From Escherichia coli (GTDB lineage Bacteria > Pseudomonadota > Gammaproteobacteria > Enterobacterales > Enterobacteriaceae), in the NCBI RefSeq assembly GCF_003334305.1, contig NZ_QOWS01000007.1: a DNA stretch of 64,000 nt; one strand, 5' to 3'. The stretch's first letter is position 1. Each line of letters opens with the position of its first letter. This document shows, one piece after another, positions 12,386-22,626 of the stretch. The notes under the pieces are model-generated. The model searched no databases, was not told the origin of the DNA, and was given only the letters and a program-made list of their open reading frames with translations. The translations under genes and the position numbers were made by a program.

Positions 12386-13258
12386 TTACAGCCACTCTAC
12401 CCGCAACGACATCTCTGAAGTTGTTGATTCCCCTGGTGCTAGCGCAATGAGATCACCCCCTTCCGGGCGATGATGATCATCCGGCGCATGGCTCATCGGT
12501 TCCAGACAGAAGAAATCAAACGCATATCCTTTATCAAACGCAGGGTCGGAAACAAAGATGAAATAACACGGTGCAGGTGGCGTCGTTTCCATGATGATGG
12601 CATAACCTTCCTGCGGCTGCTCGATGCGGGCCTGACCATTCCATCCGGCAAAACCATTGTTCACCCACTGGCGCGGCAACGGCGCGGGCTGGTTAAAATC
12701 CAGTTCCTGCGGTAGCTGCTCGCAAAACTCACCCGCCAGCCACTGCTCCCGCTCCAGCCAGTAACCGCTCGCCTGTGCCTGAATCCGCGTTTGCGGCGAC
12801 AACGGAAAATAAGGATGCCAGCCGGTACCAAATGGCAGCGTCTCTGCCCCTTGATTGGTGACAGAGAGCGTCACCGTCAGCGTATCCGCCGTTAAATGAA
12901 ACGCCTGACTTACCCGATAGTGATAGACACCGCTGCGATGTTCATACACCAGACACAAACTATCATCGCTGTGCGAGACACATTGCCACTCGCCCAGCCA
13001 GCCATCGCCGTGTAGATAGTGCGCATCCCACTCAACATTCGGTTGCAGTTGATACTCACGCCCCTGCCAGACAAAACGATTGCCGCTCACCCGGTTTGCA
13101 AATGGCACCAGCGGAAAACATGAGGCATCGGTTGCCACACCGCTTTTTTTACCAGGACGTAAGAGCGGCGTCGTATCGCGCCAGAAGCCTTCGATTACGC
13201 CGCCCTGGTCAGAAACGTCCAGCTTTAGCGACCCGTGGGATAAGGTATAGATGGTCAT
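12386..13258 (-). CDS. yphB: Aldose 1-epimerase (mutarotase) family protein YphB, 290 aa
   Basis: ORF track 12386..13258; recognised as E. coli YphB, remembered as aldose-1-epimerase-like. Confidence 0.85.
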   Translation of the reverse strand: MTIYTLSHGSLKLDVSDQGGVIEGFWRDTTPLLRPGKKSGVATDASCFPLVPFANRVSGNRFVWQGREYQLQPNVEWDAHYLHGDGWLGEWQCVSHSDDSLCLVYEHRSGVYHYRVSQAFHLTADTLTVTLSVTNQGAETLPFGTGWHPYFPLSPQTRIQAQASGYWLEREQWLAGEFCEQLPQELDFNQPAPLPRQWVNNGFAGWNGQARIEQPQEGYAIIMETTPPAPCYFIFVSDPAFDKGYAFDFFCLEPMSHAPDDHHRPEGGDLIALAPGESTTSEMSLRVEWL

Positions 13259-13269
13259 CCGCTAACTCC

Positions 13270-14331
13270 TTAATCCGGGAAGTTAATCACAACTTTCCCG
13301 CATTTGCCGCTCGCCATCAGCGCATAGGCATCACCTGCCTGTTCCAGCGAGAAGCGATGGGTAATGGCGTTACGCGGCCACAGTTTCCAGTCCGTCAGAT
13401 CATGGGCGCATTTTTCCATATGGAACAGACTGGTCACCCAGGAGCCGATAATCCGCCGTTGATGGTGCATCAGATCGGCGCTGACCTCGAACTCCACTTT
13501 TCCGGTTTCTCCGATGTAAACCACCCGTCCCCAGTCAGCGGTGGATCGCAGTGCCAGCAAGCGACCTGCGGCATTACCAGAACAATCGAGCGCAACATCC
13601 GCGCCACCGTGGGTGAGTTCGGCGATAATCTGCGGCAGACCTTCGGTGGTTGCTAAATAGCCGTGATCCATCACCCCTAACTGTTTTGCCATCGCCAGAC
13701 GTTCCGGCAGCATATCAACGCCGATGATCCGTTTTGCACCGCGACCTTTCGCCAGCATCATCGCCATCATGCCGACTGGCCCCAGACCGACCACCAGCAC
13801 GTTATCACTGCCGGAAACTTCGCCGCGCAAAATCCCTTCATAGGCCGTGCCAACGCCGCAACTGATAAACGCACCATCTTCGTAGCTCAGCGCATCCGGC
13901 AGGAGGATCAGATCTTTTTCTTCCGCCAGCAGATATTCGGCATGACCGCCGTCACGCTGCCAGCCGTAAGCCGCTTTTCCTTTGCCAGTACAAGAGATAG
14001 GAAAGCCGCGGCGGCAGTTCGGGCAAAAACCACAGCCAGAAATGTGATACACCAGCACGCGATCACCCTCTTTAAAATGGCGACAGCCTTGCCCCATCGC
14101 CACAATCTGCCCGCACGGTTCATGACCGTTGATAAATCCCTGGTATAACGGTTTATCGGGTGCCGCCGCCGTGGCACGGTGTTGATGATAGATATAGTGG
14201 ACATCGCTTCCGCAAATCCCGGAGGATTTCATTTTGATCAGTACCTGGTTAATCCCCGGCGTCGGCACCGCAACTTCCCGCAGATCGACGGTTGAATTTC
14301 CTGGTAAATAAGCTGCCAGCATCGTTTTCAT
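13270..14331 (-). CDS. yphC: Zn-dependent medium-chain alcohol/polyol dehydrogenase YphC, 353 aa
   Basis: ORF track 13270..14364; start set to ATG 14329-14331 (MKTMLAAY...); GICGSDVH zinc-ADH signature. Confidence 0.85.
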   Translation of the reverse strand: MKTMLAAYLPGNSTVDLREVAVPTPGINQVLIKMKSSGICGSDVHYIYHQHRATAAAPDKPLYQGFINGHEPCGQIVAMGQGCRHFKEGDRVLVYHISGCGFCPNCRRGFPISCTGKGKAAYGWQRDGGHAEYLLAEEKDLILLPDALSYEDGAFISCGVGTAYEGILRGEVSGSDNVLVVGLGPVGMMAMMLAKGRGAKRIIGVDMLPERLAMAKQLGVMDHGYLATTEGLPQIIAELTHGGADVALDCSGNAAGRLLALRSTADWGRVVYIGETGKVEFEVSADLMHHQRRIIGSWVTSLFHMEKCAHDLTDWKLWPRNAITHRFSLEQAGDAYALMASGKCGKVVINFPD

Positions 14332-14396
14332 AAATCCCTCATTAACAATACGATTAATTTTCATCCCTGCCGCACCCGCGCCAGGGGCGTTAAGGT

Positions 14397-15395
14397 TTAG
14401 CGTTTCGCTTTACTGCTTCGCTGGGTCAGCAAGATATTCGCCAGCACCGCCACCACGATGATGACGCCGCGTACCACCTGCTGGAAAAAGGAGTTAATAC
14501 CGAGCAGCACCAGACCGTTACCGATTAGCGTAATCACCAGCACACCAAGCAATGTACCGAACAGGGAACCGCGACCGCCGGAAAGTGCCGTACCGCCGAC
14601 CACGACCGCGGCGATGACGTCAAACTCCAGACCGTTTGCGGCACCTGCGTTACCAGAACCGAGGCGCGCCGCCAACAAAATGCCGGTCACCGCCGCTAAT
14701 AATCCCGAAAGGGTAAAGATAAGAATGCGCACCCGACGAACGTTGATGCCGCACAACTGCGCCGCCGTAGCATTACCGCCAACGGCAAAAACCGAGCGCC
14801 CGAAGGCGGTTTTGCGGCTGATGAACACAAACAGCGCAAACAACACAATCATGATCAGCGCGGATACCGGCACACCGAGAAATTGTCCGCCCAGCCAGTC
14901 CAGCACCTCGTTTTCGTCAATCGGCACTGGCAGTGCGTTCGTCATAAACAGCCCCATTCCGCGCAGGGCGCTCCACAGCCCCAGTGTGGCAACGAAACTT
15001 GGTACGTTAAACACGCCGCGCAGCACCCCGGCCAGCGTTCCCATCAGCGCGCCTAACAGCAACACCAGCAGACACGCCACCGCCAGCGGAACTTCAAATT
15101 GCAGCAAAAATGCCAGGCACACCGAGACAAAAGCCACCATCGGCCCAACGCTGACATCAATTTCACCGGAGATAATAATCAGCGTCATCGCCCAGGCGGC
15201 AATCCCAATGGTGGCGGCATCGCGCAGCACGTTCATCTGGTTATTCAATGAGATAAAGCCAGGCGCGTTCAGGGAGAAGACCAGATAAAGAATGGCGATT
15301 ACCACCAGCAAACCGATCTCATTAATATGGCGACTGACAAATTGTTTGAGCGAGACGCTCTTGCCCTGCGGCAATGATAATGACGAAGCAGACAT
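14397..15395 (-). CDS. yphD: ABC transporter permease (sugar, RbsC-like) YphD, 332 aa
   Basis: ORF track 14397..15395; polytopic membrane protein adjacent to the ABC ATPase. Confidence 0.85.
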   Translation of the reverse strand: MSASSLSLPQGKSVSLKQFVSRHINEIGLLVVIAILYLVFSLNAPGFISLNNQMNVLRDAATIGIAAWAMTLIIISGEIDVSVGPMVAFVSVCLAFLLQFEVPLAVACLLVLLLGALMGTLAGVLRGVFNVPSFVATLGLWSALRGMGLFMTNALPVPIDENEVLDWLGGQFLGVPVSALIMIVLFALFVFISRKTAFGRSVFAVGGNATAAQLCGINVRRVRILIFTLSGLLAAVTGILLAARLGSGNAGAANGLEFDVIAAVVVGGTALSGGRGSLFGTLLGVLVITLIGNGLVLLGINSFFQQVVRGVIIVVAVLANILLTQRSSKAKR

Positions 15396-15419: not shown

Positions 15420-16931
15420 TCAGTGCACAGACAGAATGGCGGACATCAGCTCATCCACATTGACCGGCGAGTGAAACTCCTGCGAGAACGTACCGTGCTG
15501 TAACAACAGGATGCGGTCGCACACCAGCGGCAACTCCTCCACTTCACTGGAGATAAACACCACGCTTTTTCCTTCGGCAGCCAGCTCACGGACAATACGG
15601 TAAATCTGCTGTTTGGCTTCGATATCGACGCCGCGCGTTGGCTCGTCGAGCAACAAAATCTGGCTGGCGGCATAGACCCAACGACCGATCACCACTTTTT
15701 GCTGATTGCCGCCAGAAAGCGTGCCGATGGGCGTTTCGCTACTGGCGGCCTTGACCGTCATCCGCTGCATCACCTCTTCGGTCAGGCGGCGGATGGTGGA
15801 CCATTGCAGTACGCCGTTGGCGCTGATTTTTTGCCGATTGGTCAGCACTGTATTTTCGTCAACGCCCAACCAGGGAATGATCCCCGCTTCTTTGCGGTTT
15901 TCTGGCGTATAGCCAATGCCGCGTTTCAGCATGTCGCCGTAATCGGGGCGCGTGATTTTCTCGCCGTTGATAACAATTTCGCCCTGTTCATACTCCTCCA
16001 GCCCAACAATCGCCTTCAGCAATTCACTGCGCCCTGCCCCCAGCAGGCCAGCAATGCCAAGCACTTCGCCGCGACGTAACGTAAAGCTGATATCCTCCAG
16101 CTTGGGCTTATGGCGTAATGCACGGACTTCCAGCACGGCCTGATCCACAATTTCCTGAGGGGCTACCGGCGCAATATCAACGTGATCACGCCCTAGCATT
16201 AGCGACACAATATGATGCGTGGAGGTGTTTTCGAGCATCACATCGCCCGCCACCTGACCATCGCGCATAACGGTGGCACAGGAGGCAATGCGGCGGATTT
16301 CTTCCATCCGGTGGCTGACATAAATCACCGCCACGCCCAGTGCCGACATCTTTTTCACCGCACTGATCACCAGTTCAACTTCTGCACTGGCAAGCGAGCT
16401 GGTGGGTTCATCAAGAATGACCACGCGCGGCTCGCCCTTCATCACCCGTGCAATTTCCACCAGTTGCTTTTGCGCCGGGCTTAGCGTTGAAACAAGTTGT
16501 TCAGGACTAACGTCAACGCCCAGCGCCTGTAAGCAACGTTGGGCATCCTGCGCCATTTGCAGGTAATCAATCATGCCGTTGCGGCGAGGCCATTGACCAA
16601 GGCAGAGGTTTTCTGCCACCGTCAGCCCTTCCACCAGACTTAATTCCTGATAAACCGCACGAACCCCCAGTTCAGCGGCACGGCGAGTCAACGTAGCTTC
16701 GTCACCTTCCAGTCGCGTCTCGCCAATCCAGATATCACCGCTATCCGGGCGTTCGCTGCCGGTAAGCATTCGAATGAGAGTCGATTTGCCCGCGCCGTTT
16801 TTACCTAACAGCGCACGAACTTCGCCTTTATTGAGCGTGAAGTTAACGTTATCCAGCGCAACGACGCCGGGGTAACGCTTATTTCCTGCCACCACTTTTG
16901 CTACCGGGACTGCCTCTGTTGCCGTGAACAT
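15420..16931 (-). CDS. yphE: ABC transporter ATP-binding protein with duplicated ABC domains (sugar importer type) YphE, 503 aa
   Basis: ORF track 15420..16931; two Walker A motifs (GKNGAGKST, GLLGAGRSE) and LSGGNQQK signature. Confidence 0.9.
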   Translation of the reverse strand: MFTATEAVPVAKVVAGNKRYPGVVALDNVNFTLNKGEVRALLGKNGAGKSTLIRMLTGSERPDSGDIWIGETRLEGDEATLTRRAAELGVRAVYQELSLVEGLTVAENLCLGQWPRRNGMIDYLQMAQDAQRCLQALGVDVSPEQLVSTLSPAQKQLVEIARVMKGEPRVVILDEPTSSLASAEVELVISAVKKMSALGVAVIYVSHRMEEIRRIASCATVMRDGQVAGDVMLENTSTHHIVSLMLGRDHVDIAPVAPQEIVDQAVLEVRALRHKPKLEDISFTLRRGEVLGIAGLLGAGRSELLKAIVGLEEYEQGEIVINGEKITRPDYGDMLKRGIGYTPENRKEAGIIPWLGVDENTVLTNRQKISANGVLQWSTIRRLTEEVMQRMTVKAASSETPIGTLSGGNQQKVVIGRWVYAASQILLLDEPTRGVDIEAKQQIYRIVRELAAEGKSVVFISSEVEELPLVCDRILLLQHGTFSQEFHSPVNVDELMSAILSVH

Positions 16932-16953: not shown

Positions 16954-17937
16954 TTAGGGCAGACCATCAACGTGCGTTGCCAGCCACTGTTTACCATCTT
17001 CCGTTTTGGTATAGAGATCGATTGGCACCTGAATCACTTTTTCACCGTCGGCTTGTTTATTGATAACCTTCAATGTTTGCGCGAAAACAGCATTGCCCAT
17101 TTTCTTACCGGAAATATCCACTACCGCTTTCAGCACCTGATTGTTTTCCAGCTCCTGAGCAATTTCGGTTGTCATATCCGAACCGAAAACAGCAATTTTT
17201 CCGGCCTGATTTTGATTACGTACCGCTTTTACCGCGCCGAGTGTCGCACCGCCCGACTCCCCCATAATGGCGTTGAGATCCGGCGTGGAGATAATCAGTT
17301 TTTCACCAACGGAAATCGCTTTATCTAAAACAGTCCCTTCCTGATTAGCGACAATTTGCGCGCCGGGAACGCGGGATTTTAATACTTCTTCAAATCCTTT
17401 ACGTCGCTGCACACAAACTTCAAAGGCTTCGCAATTGATGACGGCAATTTTCGGCTGGTCAATTTTATTGGCAATAAAATAATCGGCGGCAGCGTTACCC
17501 AGTTTTTTACCAAATTCCAGTGGATCGCCGACCAGATACGCCGAGACATATTTATCGACACCCTTTTGATTAATACAGGTGTTGTAGCAAATCACCGGAA
17601 TACCCGCTTCACTGGCGCGACGAACGGTACGGCTACTGCCATTTTCAGACACTGCCGATAAAATAATGGCATCGACATTACGCGCCACGAGGGTATCAAC
17701 AAAGGTACTTTCTTTCGAAATATCACCCTGGGCGTTAGTTTCAATTAACTGTACCTGTACTGAAGAATCTTTTGCCGCATCCTGAACGCCCTGACGCACT
17801 CCAGCGTAATATCCCTGGGTATCAAGGTATATTGCACCAATGGTCATCTCTTTATCCGCAGCCCTGGCAAATAGTGCGCTACCTAATAGCGTACCCATTA
17901 ATAATAGATTACGGGTTGTTCTCATTTTTTTAGGCAT
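16954..17937 (-). CDS. yphF: Periplasmic sugar-binding protein of ABC transporter YphF, 327 aa
   Basis: ORF track 16954..17937; N-terminal signal-peptide-like segment, RbsB-like. Confidence 0.85.
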   Translation of the reverse strand: MPKKMRTTRNLLLMGTLLGSALFARAADKEMTIGAIYLDTQGYYAGVRQGVQDAAKDSSVQVQLIETNAQGDISKESTFVDTLVARNVDAIILSAVSENGSSRTVRRASEAGIPVICYNTCINQKGVDKYVSAYLVGDPLEFGKKLGNAAADYFIANKIDQPKIAVINCEAFEVCVQRRKGFEEVLKSRVPGAQIVANQEGTVLDKAISVGEKLIISTPDLNAIMGESGGATLGAVKAVRNQNQAGKIAVFGSDMTTEIAQELENNQVLKAVVDISGKKMGNAVFAQTLKVINKQADGEKVIQVPIDLYTKTEDGKQWLATHVDGLP

Positions 17938-18033
17938 AGTGCCTCCTGTAGGGTTTTTATTAACAACGGCTTATTCTAATTATTTTGTGATGAGCGGCAG
18001 CGCGTGCCGCTCAAATATTACAGTTAATAGGGT

Positions 18034-21000
18034 TTAGTGAACGTAGTTAAAAATAAAAGGCATCACGGTGGTGAATAATGCCGCTTTCGGCCAGGCCGGA
18101 TTAATCGCCGTCAATTCAGCGCGAGCAGATTCATATTGCGCAACCTCCCCGAGTCCCGCGGACGCCAGCATCGCCACCATCAGGCATTTTTCTTTATGCT
18201 GCTGTTGTAAATCGCCATACAGCGACAACAGGTCAGGTTGTGAAACAGCAAAGAAATCCGCCTCAATACTGGTTTTCGCCATCTCTTGCGCCCACTGTTT
18301 CATTTCACTAAACAGTTGCTGTGCGGTTTGCTGTTCACCCAGCAGTCGCAGCGCCATTCCTTGCCAGAAGAGATAATCAACCGGCTGATCGTTGTAATAA
18401 CTGTGGATGTTAATGGTGCGATCGCCGGTCGCCGCCAGACGTAAACAACGCATCGCTTCAGTTTCATCGCCCTGCGCGTTGGCGCATATCGCCTGCCAGA
18501 ACCAGATGTCGTTATCAGTTTGCCCCGGTAAACGGCCTTCGCTTAAATTCTCCGGATAATGCAGCGCGGCATGAAGCAGTTCGCTGGCCTGCTGCGGCTC
18601 TCTGGCATCAAGATGCTGCCAGGCGCGTAATAACTGGTTGAGGATAAACTGACTGGTGACCTTCCCTTCCCCGCCTTCCCACGGGTGGAATTTGCGCGTG
18701 GCGAGAATGTCCGCCGCTTTGTCTGCCTGACCCGTGAGATGCCACAAATTGAGCAACTCTGCTGTCATGTCGTCGCGTTTCAGCGCAATTTCCAGATTAT
18801 TTTCCAGACGCGCCAGTCGTTTCTCCGGTGTGGCTCCGCTTAACTTATCAAGCAAATCCCGTTCGAAAAGCAGACGTGCATCCTGCGGCGCAAGCTGATA
18901 AGCATTATCAAGATAACGCGCGGCCAGCTCATAATCGTGTTGCTTATTCCACGCATGGATCGCTAACCCGCGCCAGCCGTCGGCAAACTCCGGCGACATC
19001 TCTACGCAACGTTGCCATAAGGTAATGGCTTTGTTGTAGCTACGCTTGTTGTAGTAGAAGCAGGCCAGTAAATGACGGGCAAACCAGCACTCTTCAATAC
19101 TCTCCAGCGCCGCCACTTCTTCCAGCGTATTCGGGAAACGGACAAACTGCGGGAAGACATCAATGGCTTTTGCGACCAGTTCGCCGCGTTCGGCTTTCGG
19201 CAATAAACTCGCCTGCAGGTAAAGCGGCAGCGTGCGCTGGCAGTCCAGTGCGTTCAGCATCTCTGCCGCCAGGGTGGGCATTCCCCAGTTAATCAGTTGC
19301 CCGGCGGTCATCAGAGCGTTAACGTCGCGTCCCTGACACAGACCGCGCCACTGCGCGAGAGCTGATTCGCTACGACCATCGAACCAGTTCAGCCACCACA
19401 GAGTGGCGTTCAGCGGATAATCGCGCAGCAGTTTCTCGCGCTGCACACGCGCGTTGTCCTGACGACCACTTAACACCAGCAGCAGATTATGCAGGCAAAG
19501 CACTTCCTGATTGGTTGGGCAGGCGCGAAGACTTTGTTGGCAAAAATCCAGACCAGCGTCGAAGTTACCATTACGCGCCGCCAGTCGTGCCAGGCCATAA
19601 TAGCCACCGGCTTTGCTGTTGCCGCTCCAGACCGCACGCCAGAAATCCTCTTCGGCTTGTTGATATTGTCCCTGACGTTCGTAAGCACTGGCGCGAATCA
19701 AACTGGCCTGTCCGCACTGCGGATTTTTGTTCAGCGCATGTGCGCGTTTCAGCGCCTGAGTGGCATACGCCACCGCTTGCGGGAAATCGGCGCGGTTATA
19801 TTCCAGCATCGCCAGCGCCAGGTTACAGCGGTAATCCAGCGGATCCAGCACCACGCCGCGCAGGTAGTAATCGAACGGTGAACGGCTGGCGTGATGATAT
19901 TGCTCCAGATGCTGACCGATAAACCAGGCTTCATCTGTACTGGTAATGTCTTGTGCTGCCAGTGGCGCTTTGGCGACGTCCGGCAACGGCAACTCTTGCG
20001 GCTGATGTTCCTGATAACTCAGTACAATATTGCCGTCGGCATCGGAGAGCTCAATGGTCAGCCTTTCAGGATTGATACCGTGCAACACGCCCTGGATGGC
20101 GGTCGCAGGCATCAGTGCCACGGCATCATCAAGTAACGCGTTGCATTTGCCGATTTCGCGGATCGCCAGGCGGTATCCGTTCAACGGAGAGATGGCATAC
20201 AGCCCCCACTCAATCCCCCGCTTACTACGCTGGAGTTTTATCACCGCATCGCGGGAGGCATTTTGCACCATGCCCAAAGAATGATAAGGCAGGAAATACT
20301 GCTCAAAACGCATCTCTTCGTAAGCATCAAGCCAGGTAAAATCGGGCTGGTTATCGGCAAAAATACCGGTCATCAGTTCGATATACGGGCCGTTATTGTC
20401 GGTCAGACTCTTATCCCACGCCTGGCCAAATTCACTGTGTCCCCAACTCCACTGTTTTTTACCTGGCGCGATATGGTGGTTGGCAACGTGCAGCAAACCG
20501 CCATCTTCATCGTGACACCACGCGCCGACAAAATCGTACTGCGATTTTTCGGCCATATATGAGGTTGGAACAGGCACATTTTTATAGCGAGAAATGTCCA
20601 CTCCGGCGGAGTAGTCCACTTTGTAGTAAGTGCCGGTGGCGATGGGGAAAGCGGAGACGGCCCGTTTGCCGTGATCAAACACCGCAGTCACATCCGGTGG
20701 GAAAACGCTCTGATGCCCTTCCCCCCCTTTCACTGCCGGGTTGGCCCACCACAAGAAATGACGCGGCGTGGCGTTACCGTTATAGACGCGGCTGGCGATT
20801 TCCAGCGCCGCCCGTTCAGGACGCAGTGTGAAACCTGTCATCACCTGTAAACCGTGCATCGGCTCCGTTTCGCCGACCCACACCGTCTGTGCGCCGTCTT
20901 CATGGGCTTCGAGGGTGAAATCAACGGGCATAAAGGTGGTCGGGCGATGGTGTTGCGGCCAGTTAAACTCAATCCCGCCAGAGATCCACGGTCCCAGCAG

Positions 21001-21315
21001 CCCCACCAGCGCAGGTTTAATGACTTCATTGTGATAGACAAAATCGCGTTGTTTCACTTTATCCCATGCGCGATGCACACGACCGCCCAGTTCCGGCAGG
21101 ATCATCACTTTGATGTAGTCGTTTTCCAGCCACACCGCCTGCCAGGATTTCAGGGTTTTCTGCTCGCTCAGCGTATCGGTCACGCCGTAGGGATAAACCG
21201 CGCCGGACGATCCCTGATAAACGCGATTTTCCAAGAACATGGGATGTATATCCTGCGGCCCGGTTTCATAGGTCGGGATCTCAACGCGCTCTTGCCACAC
21301 TTTTACTGGAGTCAT
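18034..21315 (-). CDS. yphG: Large uncharacterised protein YphG (N-terminal domain of unknown function plus C-terminal TPR repeats), 1093 aa
   Basis: ORF track 18034..21408; start set to ATG 21313-21315, preceded by a GAGGG RBS; the longer form would need a TTG start with no RBS. Confidence 0.8.
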   Translation of the reverse strand: MTPVKVWQERVEIPTYETGPQDIHPMFLENRVYQGSSGAVYPYGVTDTLSEQKTLKSWQAVWLENDYIKVMILPELGGRVHRAWDKVKQRDFVYHNEVIKPALVGLLGPWISGGIEFNWPQHHRPTTFMPVDFTLEAHEDGAQTVWVGETEPMHGLQVMTGFTLRPERAALEIASRVYNGNATPRHFLWWANPAVKGGEGHQSVFPPDVTAVFDHGKRAVSAFPIATGTYYKVDYSAGVDISRYKNVPVPTSYMAEKSQYDFVGAWCHDEDGGLLHVANHHIAPGKKQWSWGHSEFGQAWDKSLTDNNGPYIELMTGIFADNQPDFTWLDAYEEMRFEQYFLPYHSLGMVQNASRDAVIKLQRSKRGIEWGLYAISPLNGYRLAIREIGKCNALLDDAVALMPATAIQGVLHGINPERLTIELSDADGNIVLSYQEHQPQELPLPDVAKAPLAAQDITSTDEAWFIGQHLEQYHHASRSPFDYYLRGVVLDPLDYRCNLALAMLEYNRADFPQAVAYATQALKRAHALNKNPQCGQASLIRASAYERQGQYQQAEEDFWRAVWSGNSKAGGYYGLARLAARNGNFDAGLDFCQQSLRACPTNQEVLCLHNLLLVLSGRQDNARVQREKLLRDYPLNATLWWLNWFDGRSESALAQWRGLCQGRDVNALMTAGQLINWGMPTLAAEMLNALDCQRTLPLYLQASLLPKAERGELVAKAIDVFPQFVRFPNTLEEVAALESIEECWFARHLLACFYYNKRSYNKAITLWQRCVEMSPEFADGWRGLAIHAWNKQHDYELAARYLDNAYQLAPQDARLLFERDLLDKLSGATPEKRLARLENNLEIALKRDDMTAELLNLWHLTGQADKAADILATRKFHPWEGGEGKVTSQFILNQLLRAWQHLDAREPQQASELLHAALHYPENLSEGRLPGQTDNDIWFWQAICANAQGDETEAMRCLRLAATGDRTINIHSYYNDQPVDYLFWQGMALRLLGEQQTAQQLFSEMKQWAQEMAKTSIEADFFAVSQPDLLSLYGDLQQQHKEKCLMVAMLASAGLGEVAQYESARAELTAINPAWPKAALFTTVMPFIFNYVH

Positions 21316-21432
21316 GGTGCCCTCAATATTAACAAGACATACTGAATTAAAAGATTTGTGGCAGTGTATTGAACAATCTGGCAATGTTTTCGCGGAATAA
21401 TCACGCAATTAACTAAACAAGGTTTAGTGAAG

Positions 21433-22626
21433 ATGAGAGCCTGCATTAACAATCAACAGATTCGCCACCATAACAAATGCGTGATTCTGGAACTGCTGTA
21501 CCGGCAAAAGCGCGCCAATAAATCAACGCTGGCCCGGCTGGCGCAAATTTCGATTCCGGCAGTCAGTAATATTTTGCAGGAACTGGAAAGCGAAAAACGG
21601 GTGGTGAATATCGACGATGAAAGCCAGACGCGCGGGCATAGTAGCGGTACATGGCTGATTGCGCCGGAAGGTGACTGGACGCTGTGCCTGAACGTGACGC
21701 CCACCAGTATTGAGTGTCAGGTTGCTAATGCTTGTTTAAGTCCGAAAGGCGAGTTTGAGTATTTACAGATTGATGCACCGACGCCGCAGGCGCTGCTGTC
21801 CGAAATCGAAAAATGCTGGCATCGCCACCGTAAATTGTGGCCGGACCGCACCATCAATCTGGCGCTGGCAATCCACGGTCAGGTTGATCCGGTGACCGGC
21901 GTGTCGCAAACCATGCCGCAAGCGCCGTGGACAACGCCGGTGGAGGTGAAATATCTGCTGGAAGAGAAGCTCGGCATTCGGGTGATGGTCGATAATGACT
22001 GCGTGATGCTGGCGCTGGCGGAGAAATGGCAAAATAATTCGCAGGAACGGGATTTCTGCGTGATCAACGTTGATTACGGCATTGGCTCGTCGTTCGTGAT
22101 TAACGAGCAAATTTATCGCGGCAGTTTGTATGGTAGCGGACAGATTGGTCACACCATCGTTAATCCGGATGGCGTCGTCTGCGACTGTGGACGTTACGGC
22201 TGCCTGGAAACCGTCGCCTCGTTAAGTGCTTTAAAAAAACAGGCGCGGGTATGGCTAAAATCACAACCGGTTAATACTCAGCTTGATCCTGAAAAACTGA
22301 CAACCGCGCAGTTAATCGCTGCCTGGCAGAGTGGAGAACCGTGGATCACCAGCTGGGTTGACCGCAGTGCCAATGCCATTGGTTTGAGTCTGTATAACTT
22401 CCTCAACATCCTCAATATTAATCAGATTTGGTTGTACGGTCGCAGTTGTGCCTTTGGTGAGAACTGGCTTAATACTATTATTCGCCAGACAGGATTTAAC
22501 CCGTTCGACCGCGACGAAGGACCGAGCGTGAAAGCGACGCAAATTGGCTTCGGGCAATTAAGCCGCGCACAACAGGTGCTGGGAATTGGCTATTTGTATG
22601 TTGAGGCGCAGTTACGACAGATTTGA
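21433..22626 (+). CDS. yphH: ROK (NagC/XylR) family transcriptional regulator YphH, 397 aa
   Basis: ORF track 21427..22626 (GTG); first ATG at 21433 used; N-terminal HTH and ROK-type Cys cluster (CDCGRYGC). Confidence 0.8.
   Translation: MRACINNQQIRHHNKCVILELLYRQKRANKSTLARLAQISIPAVSNILQELESEKRVVNIDDESQTRGHSSGTWLIAPEGDWTLCLNVTPTSIECQVANACLSPKGEFEYLQIDAPTPQALLSEIEKCWHRHRKLWPDRTINLALAIHGQVDPVTGVSQTMPQAPWTTPVEVKYLLEEKLGIRVMVDNDCVMLALAEKWQNNSQERDFCVINVDYGIGSSFVINEQIYRGSLYGSGQIGHTIVNPDGVVCDCGRYGCLETVASLSALKKQARVWLKSQPVNTQLDPEKLTTAQLIAAWQSGEPWITSWVDRSANAIGLSLYNFLNILNINQIWLYGRSCAFGENWLNTIIRQTGFNPFDRDEGPSVKATQIGFGQLSRAQQVLGIGYLYVEAQLRQI

Follow-up and report, generated by a model that had tools for sequence, protein, structure and literature searches.

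The cryptic Escherichia coli gene yphG encodes a mutarotase-like domain joined to a TPR solenoid and may specify a sugar-converting enzyme

The gene yphG is located on the minus strand of the 64,000-nt stretch of Escherichia coli DNA that was analyzed here (contig NZ_QOWS01000007.1 of assembly GCF_003334305.1; hereafter the window), where it is the first gene of the yphGFEDCB series and lies divergent from yphH, which encodes a ROK regulator. The longest open reading frame (ORF) at this position spans 18034..21408 and would encode 1124 amino acids (aa) from a TTG codon, and the ATG at 21313-21315 opens the 18034..21315 coding sequence of 1093 codons and a stop, as read from the ORF list and its translation. 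The DNA of the gene is 100% identical to that of E. coli strain A7, where it has the identical annotation as yphG, "DUF5107 domain-containing protein". The product of K-12 MG1655 b2549 is the identical 1093-aa protein, and all yph genes of K-12 are still labeled "putative". Of the 5426 complete genomes of E. coli, 5423 have the gene, in every case on the chromosome.

The choice of the start codon is supported by several observations. A Shine–Dalgarno-like GAGGG sequence (21320..21324, minus strand) was read 4 nt upstream of the ATG, and the sequence TTGAGGG is kept at this place in Escherichia albertii, Enterobacter, Klebsiella, and Budvicia. All 110 of the 110 full-length homologs compared (54-99% identity) start within 1-3 residues of the methionine encoded by the E. 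coli ATG, and the 1093-aa form is the one annotated by both the K-12 RefSeq record and the Prokaryotic Genome Annotation Pipeline (PGAP). The reading frame ahead of the ATG is interrupted by stop codons in Enterobacter, Klebsiella, and Budvicia, even though the intergenic DNA is conserved. Because the relatives have upstream stops and the homolog N termini coincide with the ATG, the extension of the frame to the TTG is fortuitous in E. coli, and the 1124-aa ORF was rejected on these grounds and on the basis of the annotations. A first-pass annotation of the window, made from the sequence alone, had likewise preferred the ATG with its GAGGG ribosome binding site over the TTG and had described the 1093-aa ORF as it was found here.

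The genes that follow yphG on the minus strand encode a putative sugar uptake system and two enzymes. The yphF gene (16954..17937) is annotated as encoding the periplasmic sugar-binding protein of a CUT2-type ATP-binding cassette (ABC) importer, and YphF has weak NCBIfam matches to allose, galactose, autoinducer-2 (AI-2), and rhizopine binding proteins. It is followed by yphE (15420..16931), encoding an ABC ATPase of the monosaccharide-importer type with two nucleotide-binding domains and matches below cut-offs to the NCBIfam families AraG, XylG, AlsA, and MglA, and by yphD (14397..15395), encoding an ABC permease similar to RbsC and AraH in NCBIfam. The yphC gene (13270..14364) encodes a Zn-dependent medium-chain dehydrogenase according to the annotations and to NCBIfam matches to Tdh and IolM below cut-offs; its length differs by source, with 364 aa in PGAP and 353 aa in K-12. 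The last gene, yphB (12386..13258), encodes an aldose 1-epimerase, and the solved structure 3nre is that of b2544. On the plus strand yphH (21433..22626) encodes a ROK-family regulator, as indicated by its annotation and by NagC/Mlc-like NCBIfam matches; its longest ORF begins at a GTG at 21427, and both annotations take the ATG at 21433. Hence, the placement of yphG in the context of an ABC sugar-importer operon, proposed in the first-pass annotation, is confirmed by five genes on the same strand and by the divergent yphH.

The region between yphG and yphH contains a perfect inverted repeat at 21412..21428, which has a 7-3-7 arrangement (ACTAAAC-CTT-GTTTAGT on the minus strand) and ends 4 nt before the yphH ATG. 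The repeat is conserved in E. albertii and largely so in Enterobacter and Klebsiella, and conserved blocks TTGCGTGATTATT and CAGTATGTCTTGTTAA are located near it. It is a candidate operator for the ROK protein YphH, or it may belong to the divergent promoter. No sigma-70 consensus site was found by the promoter scan anywhere in positions 17800-21700. At the other end of yphG, within its last 16 codons, a terminator-like hairpin with an 8-bp stem followed by a T-run was noted at 18059-18082 (minus strand). It precedes the yphG stop and the 96-bp spacer between yphG and yphF, and might influence how far transcription continues into the genes of the transporter; this hairpin is a consensus match only, and the number of such sites was not above that in shuffled controls.

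The domain composition of YphG was determined from profile searches and from an AlphaFold model built on 86 homologs of 27-81% identity, which had a mean predicted local distance difference test (pLDDT) score of 95.5 and a predicted template modeling (pTM) score of 0.93. Residues 39-323 match the Pfam family DUF5107 (PF17128) with an E-value of 8.9e-55 and 186 bits. In the model, residues 1-345 (20281..21315, minus strand) form a beta-supersandwich like that of aldose 1-epimerases, and this is the most conserved part of the protein, with the motifs PMFLENRVYQGSSG, GGIEFNWPQHHRP, WWAN, YIELM, and TDNQPDF. Residues 357-435 (20011..20247, minus strand) form a small all-beta, Ig-like linker domain according to the secondary structure of the model, and their conservation is low (0.30-0.42). 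Residues 460-1092 (18040..19938, minus strand) form a TPR-type helical solenoid of about 32 helices, in which Pfam TPR_16 matches residues 499-560 (E 2.9e-6) and 754-813 (E 5e-4), and which matches consensus TPR proteins in the PDB with an E-value of 1.9e-36. Both the profile matches and the helical-hairpin solenoid place YphG among TPR repeat proteins, and the stretch quoted as TPR-like in the first-pass annotation (about residues 515-595) is located inside these Pfam and PDB matches. The first 40 windows of a Kyte–Doolittle scan reached a top 19-residue mean of 0.04, so there is no hydrophobic, signal-peptide-like segment, as expected from the earlier description of the protein as cytoplasmic-looking. 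With a mass of about 122 kDa, the probably cytoplasmic YphG is composed of three parts: a beta-supersandwich, a small beta linker, and a TPR solenoid that extends over some 630 residues. The N-terminal domain, for which no assignment could be offered in the first-pass annotation, is a DUF5107 domain with the aldose-1-epimerase-like fold.

The fold comparisons did not connect YphG to glycan-cleaving enzymes. The N-terminal domain has the galactose-mutarotase beta-supersandwich fold; its closest folds are free-sugar mutarotases rather than the domains of glycoside hydrolases (GH), and it resembles no GH or lyase catalytic fold, which were the comparisons suggested in the first-pass annotation. 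In the enzymes of families GH15, GH65, GH94, and GH95, and of polysaccharide lyase (PL) families PL8, PL15, and PL17, it is the helical part that is catalytic, with a closed (alpha/alpha)6 or toroid shape, while the sandwich is accessory. In contrast, the helical half of YphG matches open TPR solenoids rather than the (alpha/alpha)n toroid, and it does not form a closed (alpha/alpha)6-type barrel related to GH/PL catalytic domains; the sandwich is the conserved, presumably catalytic part. No sequence match to a GH or PL family was obtained in the Pfam, NCBIfam, and PDB searches. The NCBIfam search returned only sub-threshold TPR families, neither the sequence by itself nor the profile retrieved anything from the PDB but 5cd6 and generic TPR proteins, and the matches of the AFDB50 fold search were confined to DUF5107 proteins and generic TPR proteins, without a functional name among them. 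The AFDB match A0A316R4Z1 had a template modeling (TM) score of 0.91 across the whole length of YphG. The PDB entry 5cd6 is BDI_1685 of Parabacteroides distasonis, a structural-genomics "TPR-domain containing protein" without assigned function and a distant homolog of YphG, with which it shares 21-23% identity. It is half the size of YphG (580 aa) with a much shorter TPR part, has H-S-P where YphG has H-H-R, and does not have the DNQPD motif.

The three parts of YphG differ in their conservation. In homologs that are overall less than 62% identical, the identity to the E. coli protein was 64-95% in residues 1-355, 30-42% in the small beta domain, and 27-58% in the TPR half. A lack of conservation of the N-terminal domain outside E. 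coli, which by the account of the first-pass annotation itself would have spoken against it, is clearly not the case, as the domain is 53-57% identical between E. coli and Bacteroidota or Bacillota proteins. The alignment of 86 sequences, with identities as low as 27%, has invariant or near-invariant positions that include, in this domain, E116, H122, H123, R124, N192, H215, K286/K287, D306, E313, N322-Q323-P324-D325, and E333, and D321 also belongs to these polar positions. In the TPR half W563, R782, E880, and G881 were near-invariant in the same sequences, and several non-helical loops are conserved: HPWEGGEG (877-884), PxNLxEGRL (921-929), YYNDQPVDY (973-981), and ADFFAVSQPD (1019-1028). 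When the beta half was modeled alone, its loops 21-40, 111-130, and 320-325 had pLDDT scores of 50-80, compared to above 90 in the full-length model. This difference suggests that the most conserved beta loops pack against the TPR half, with which they may form a composite site.

The combination of DUF5107 with TPR repeats is shared by a large family, which comprises 5747 clusters at 50% identity with E-values up to 1e-3 and 1145 clusters with E-values up to 1e-30. Among the 150 best matches listed, most proteins were about 1000-1170 aa long and aligned end-to-end, down to about 30% identity. In a minority of the distant members (P0222, P0264) the N termini are signal-peptide-like, and HHHRP or DHHRA replaces QHHRP, which suggests that secreted or periplasmic versions of the family may exist; the locus of P0222 has no Pfam-annotated neighbors.

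The relationship of YphG to aldose 1-epimerases (PF01263, which includes GalM, YeaD, and YphB) was not detected directly. YphG has no Pfam match to PF01263, and the hhalign comparison of its N-terminal domain with the GalM and YphB profiles was not significant (probability <3%). The connection is provided by small proteins of about 320 aa from Paenibacillus and Ruminiclostridium, which match both DUF5107 and DUF4432 in Pfam. These proteins were related to the YphG N-domain profile with a probability of 95.9%, and to the YphB-type epimerase profile with a probability of 96.6%, while the profile of 86 YphG sequences matched the merged profile of the small proteins and YphB with a probability of 96.4% and an E-value of 1.3e-9 over 283 columns. 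A forced extension of the c17 alignment beyond residue 213 was unreliable, which was resolved by the larger merged profiles. Hence, the homology of YphG to aldose 1-epimerases emerges at the level of profiles only transitively, through the small DUF5107/DUF4432 proteins.

The merged profiles allowed the catalytic positions to be compared. The general acid of mutarotases is the histidine of the H-P-x-F motif, and the catalytic base the glutamate of the l-E-P motif, which are His170 and Glu304 in Lactococcus lactis GalM. In high-confidence columns of the merged profile the H-P-x-F histidine pairs with Asn192 of the WWAN motif, which is invariant in one alignment (A2) and at least 90% conserved in another (A1). 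The l-E-P glutamate pairs with the invariant E313 of the YIELM motif, in columns with a posterior of only 0.2-0.5. The first mutarotase histidine (L-H-G), which positions the sugar, falls in an indel near H122-H123-R124, and a lower-confidence alignment pairs it with H122. Beyond what is found in aldose 1-epimerases, YphG has the extra invariant HHR, H215, K287, and DNQPD, as well as the fused Ig-like domain and the 630-residue TPR part, and it co-occurs with a genuine mutarotase instead of substituting for one. The small stand-alone DUF5107/DUF4432-like proteins are homologous to the beta domain of YphG and are without the TPR half; unlike YphG, they keep the mutarotase-type histidine and the lEP glutamate, and therefore such a protein is probably the mutarotase of the pair that it forms with a YphG ortholog. 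Judged from these alignments, YphG is a distant homolog of mutarotases in which one defining catalytic residue is missing and others have been acquired. Because the acid histidine is replaced by a near-invariant Asn192, it appears not to be a canonical mutarotase and should not be filed as an aldose 1-epimerase.

Species-representative genomes were scanned, which gave at least 592 yphG-like loci. The best 80 of these at least 592 loci belonged to Enterobacterales, Aeromonas, Photobacterium, many Bacteroidota, and many Bacillota. The synteny set consisted of 86 loci with a yphG ortholog, in which ORFs were called and clustered and the recurrent clusters were annotated. A sugar porter of the major facilitator superfamily (MFS) resembling XylE was present within three genes in 58 of the 86 loci, and in 44 it was adjacent and co-directional. 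In E. coli, Klebsiella, and Budvicia a CUT2 ABC system replaces or joins the MFS porter. The location in a sugar-importer operon, considered unusual in the first-pass annotation, is thus the rule in this family across three phyla, in which the gene is paired with a monosaccharide transporter of either the MFS or the CUT2 ABC type. Within four genes, the 20 loci of Proteobacteria contained ROK regulators (17), MFS porters (12), and YphB-type epimerases (13), and the minimal cluster in Aeromonas, Serratia, and Martelella consists of ROK, YphG, MFS, and epimerase genes, without a kinase, isomerase, or aldolase. The 51 loci of Bacteroidota contained, in the same range, MFS porters (46), AraC-type regulators (31), GH2 proteins similar to exo-beta-1,4-galactosidases (25), and GalM (13); their other neighbors included sulfatases, SusC/D, a GH97-like alpha-galactosidase, a GH36-like beta-L-arabinopyranosidase, GH95, and a GDSL esterase. 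The 15 loci of Bacillota contained AraC-type regulators (14) and the small DUF5107/DUF4432 protein (7), and in some of the Bacillota loci the yphG ortholog is found beside CUT1 oligosaccharide importers. One neighbor cluster (c45) had no match in the Pfam or PDB searches.

Two groups of these loci have additional features. In seven loci from Paenibacillus and Ruminiclostridium the gene for the small protein of about 320 aa directly adjoins the large DUF5107-TPR gene, and there this protein appears to fill the place that is occupied by YphB or GalM in other phyla. In six loci from marine Flavobacteriia the yphG ortholog is accompanied by two GH2 genes, a gene for a GDSL-type esterase, several sulfatase genes, and genes for proteins of about 475 aa without annotation, which might point to a connection with algal galactans that are sulfated or acetylated. 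Four elements recur in all three phyla: the YphG-like cytoplasmic protein itself, an importer of the monosaccharide type, a partner of the mutarotase type, and a regulator encoded nearby, while the regulator family (ROK or AraC) and the transporter family (ABC or MFS) are interchangeable between phyla.

These data could be best explained if YphG were a sugar-converting enzyme in which an altered mutarotase pocket is covered by loops of the TPR half and receives an imported sugar of monosaccharide size, and we give this reading a probability of roughly 0.5. Catalysis is favored because the beta domain is extremely conserved and rich in invariant polar residues. In E. coli the YphDEF ABC system would import a reducing sugar the size of a monosaccharide, or else a very small glycoside, a task that would belong elsewhere to the XylE-like MFS porter. 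A monosaccharide-sized substrate is suggested by the fact that the two transporter types, which are unrelated, are both of the monosaccharide type, and a reducing sugar with a relevant anomeric form by the mutarotase that accompanies YphG in each of the three phyla. This sugar would be bound in the pocket derived from mutarotases, probably closed by the conserved loops of the TPR half, and would be converted to a common aldose; the latter is expected because the minimal clusters are without downstream catabolic genes. The chemistry that we favor is a ring opening inherited from mutarotases and redirected to isomerization, epimerization, or ring-form conversion, and the role of the partner mutarotase (YphB, GalM, or the small DUF5107/DUF4432 protein) would be to bring the substrate or product anomers to equilibrium. 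The sugar is probably galacto-configured, that is of the D-galactose, L-arabinopyranose, or fucose type, or a derivative of these, because D-galactose, L-arabinopyranose, or L-fucose/L-galactose are the sugars set free by the glycosidases near the gene in Bacteroidota and Bacillota, with GalM also among the neighbors. The analysis shows the gene and its start codon, the fold, the distant relationship to mutarotases, the exchange of the acid histidine for Asn192, and the synteny, from which we infer that YphG is catalytically active, that its active site is composite, and that its sugar is of this class. The suggestion in the first-pass annotation that the protein is a glycan-processing enzyme or a scaffold holds in its first part, as a role in carbohydrate processing fits the evidence, while a pure scaffold is unlikely, as the beta domain is the most conserved part and has dense invariant polar residues.

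Several observations weigh against a converting enzyme of this kind. The loss of the general-acid histidine at Asn192 means that a mutarotase-type ring opening could not simply be assumed, and the equivalence of the catalytic glutamate with E313 is of moderate confidence in the alignments. The pocket and the interdomain contacts are predicted solely from the pLDDT behavior and from conservation. A TPR part of 630 residues is unusual for a small-molecule enzyme. The galacto assignment is based on neighbor annotations that are below the curated NCBIfam cut-offs, and the glycosidase neighbors in Bacteroidota and Bacillota, together with some CUT1 loci, would equally fit a glycosidase acting on small oligosaccharides. 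Moreover, in the searchable full-text library the papers on yphG, DUF5107, PF17128/IPR033396, yphH, other yph genes, and the yph operon gave nothing functional; the matches were marker-gene uses and expression lists, and YphH is called an uncharacterized ROK repressor.

The glycosidase explanation is the most probable among the alternatives, even though we consider it doubtful. According to it, YphG would found a new glycoside hydrolase (or lyase) family, and its mutarotase-like domain would cleave a small imported galactoside or anhydro-sugar with the help of the TPR loops, so that a defined anomer of a common aldose is freed and then equilibrated by the partner mutarotase. Mutarotases and glycosidases are commonly paired in operons, as in lacZ/galM and yihQ/yihR, a pattern that speaks for this explanation. 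The surroundings of the gene in Bacteroidota, with GH2, GH95, GH97-like, and GH36-like genes, sulfatases, and SusC/D, the CUT1 oligosaccharide ABC systems that adjoin it in some Bacillota, and the minimal clusters without downstream catabolic genes are all consistent with this explanation, and so are the many invariant carboxylates (E116, D306, E313, D321, D325, E333, E880). On the other hand, the linked transporters are both of the monosaccharide type (CUT2 ABC and XylE-like porter), the nearest folds are those of free-sugar mutarotases rather than GH domains, the helical half is a TPR solenoid and not an (alpha/alpha)6 catalytic barrel, and no GH family was matched in Pfam, NCBIfam, or the PDB.

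A non-catalytic role is improbable. YphG could be a cytoplasmic sugar sensor or adaptor, in which sugar binding by the mutarotase-like domain is relayed through the TPR part to a regulator, a transporter, or another enzyme, an explanation that is close to the scaffold idea mentioned above. It would account for the loss of the canonical acid histidine (N192) and for the divergent regulator that adjoins the gene in nearly all loci. However, an adaptor for a specific protein partner is disfavored because the partner regulator (ROK or AraC) and transporter (ABC or MFS) families change between phyla. The beta domain is also far more conserved than the TPR part, with more invariant ionizable residues than binding would need, and the pTM score of 0.93 points to a rigid, closed arrangement of the two halves in the model rather than a solenoid free for docking. 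Finally, it is very improbable that YphG is just a large divergent mutarotase that interconverts the anomers, or the pyranose and furanose forms, of one particular sugar, as could be proposed from its mutarotase-like fold, its distant aldose 1-epimerase homology, and the retention of the putative catalytic glutamate as E313, because the acid histidine is replaced by a near-invariant asparagine, a genuine mutarotase-type gene alongside in all three phyla would make YphG redundant, and both its size and its extra invariant residues go beyond the needs of mutarotation.

The gene yphG, the DUF5107 family, and the homologous structure 5cd6 are already present in public databases, so yphG is not a new element but a catalogued gene that poses a well-defined unsolved functional problem. 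It is a core E. coli gene, and its family is very large, with >1100 clusters at 50% identity from gut, soil, and marine bacteria. The reading of YphG as a sugar-converting enzyme can be extended to this family with about an even chance of being correct: the DUF5107-TPR proteins would then be an unrecognized class of cytoplasmic sugar-converting enzymes, which evolved from mutarotases by a change of histidine to asparagine and by the acquisition of a TPR lid, and which define a widespread cross-phylum module of a regulator, a monosaccharide porter, a YphG-like enzyme, and a mutarotase. Such a module would serve a sugar with an undescribed catabolic entry, for example a rare sugar of the galacto series, a ring form, or an anhydro-sugar. 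If this is true, YphG would represent a new type of enzyme on the mutarotase scaffold and would mark an undescribed route of sugar utilization. It would also provide a function for the whole cryptic operon yphBCDEFG-yphH, thereby reducing the number of E. coli genes without a function, and would improve the annotation of many polysaccharide-utilization loci of Bacteroidota.

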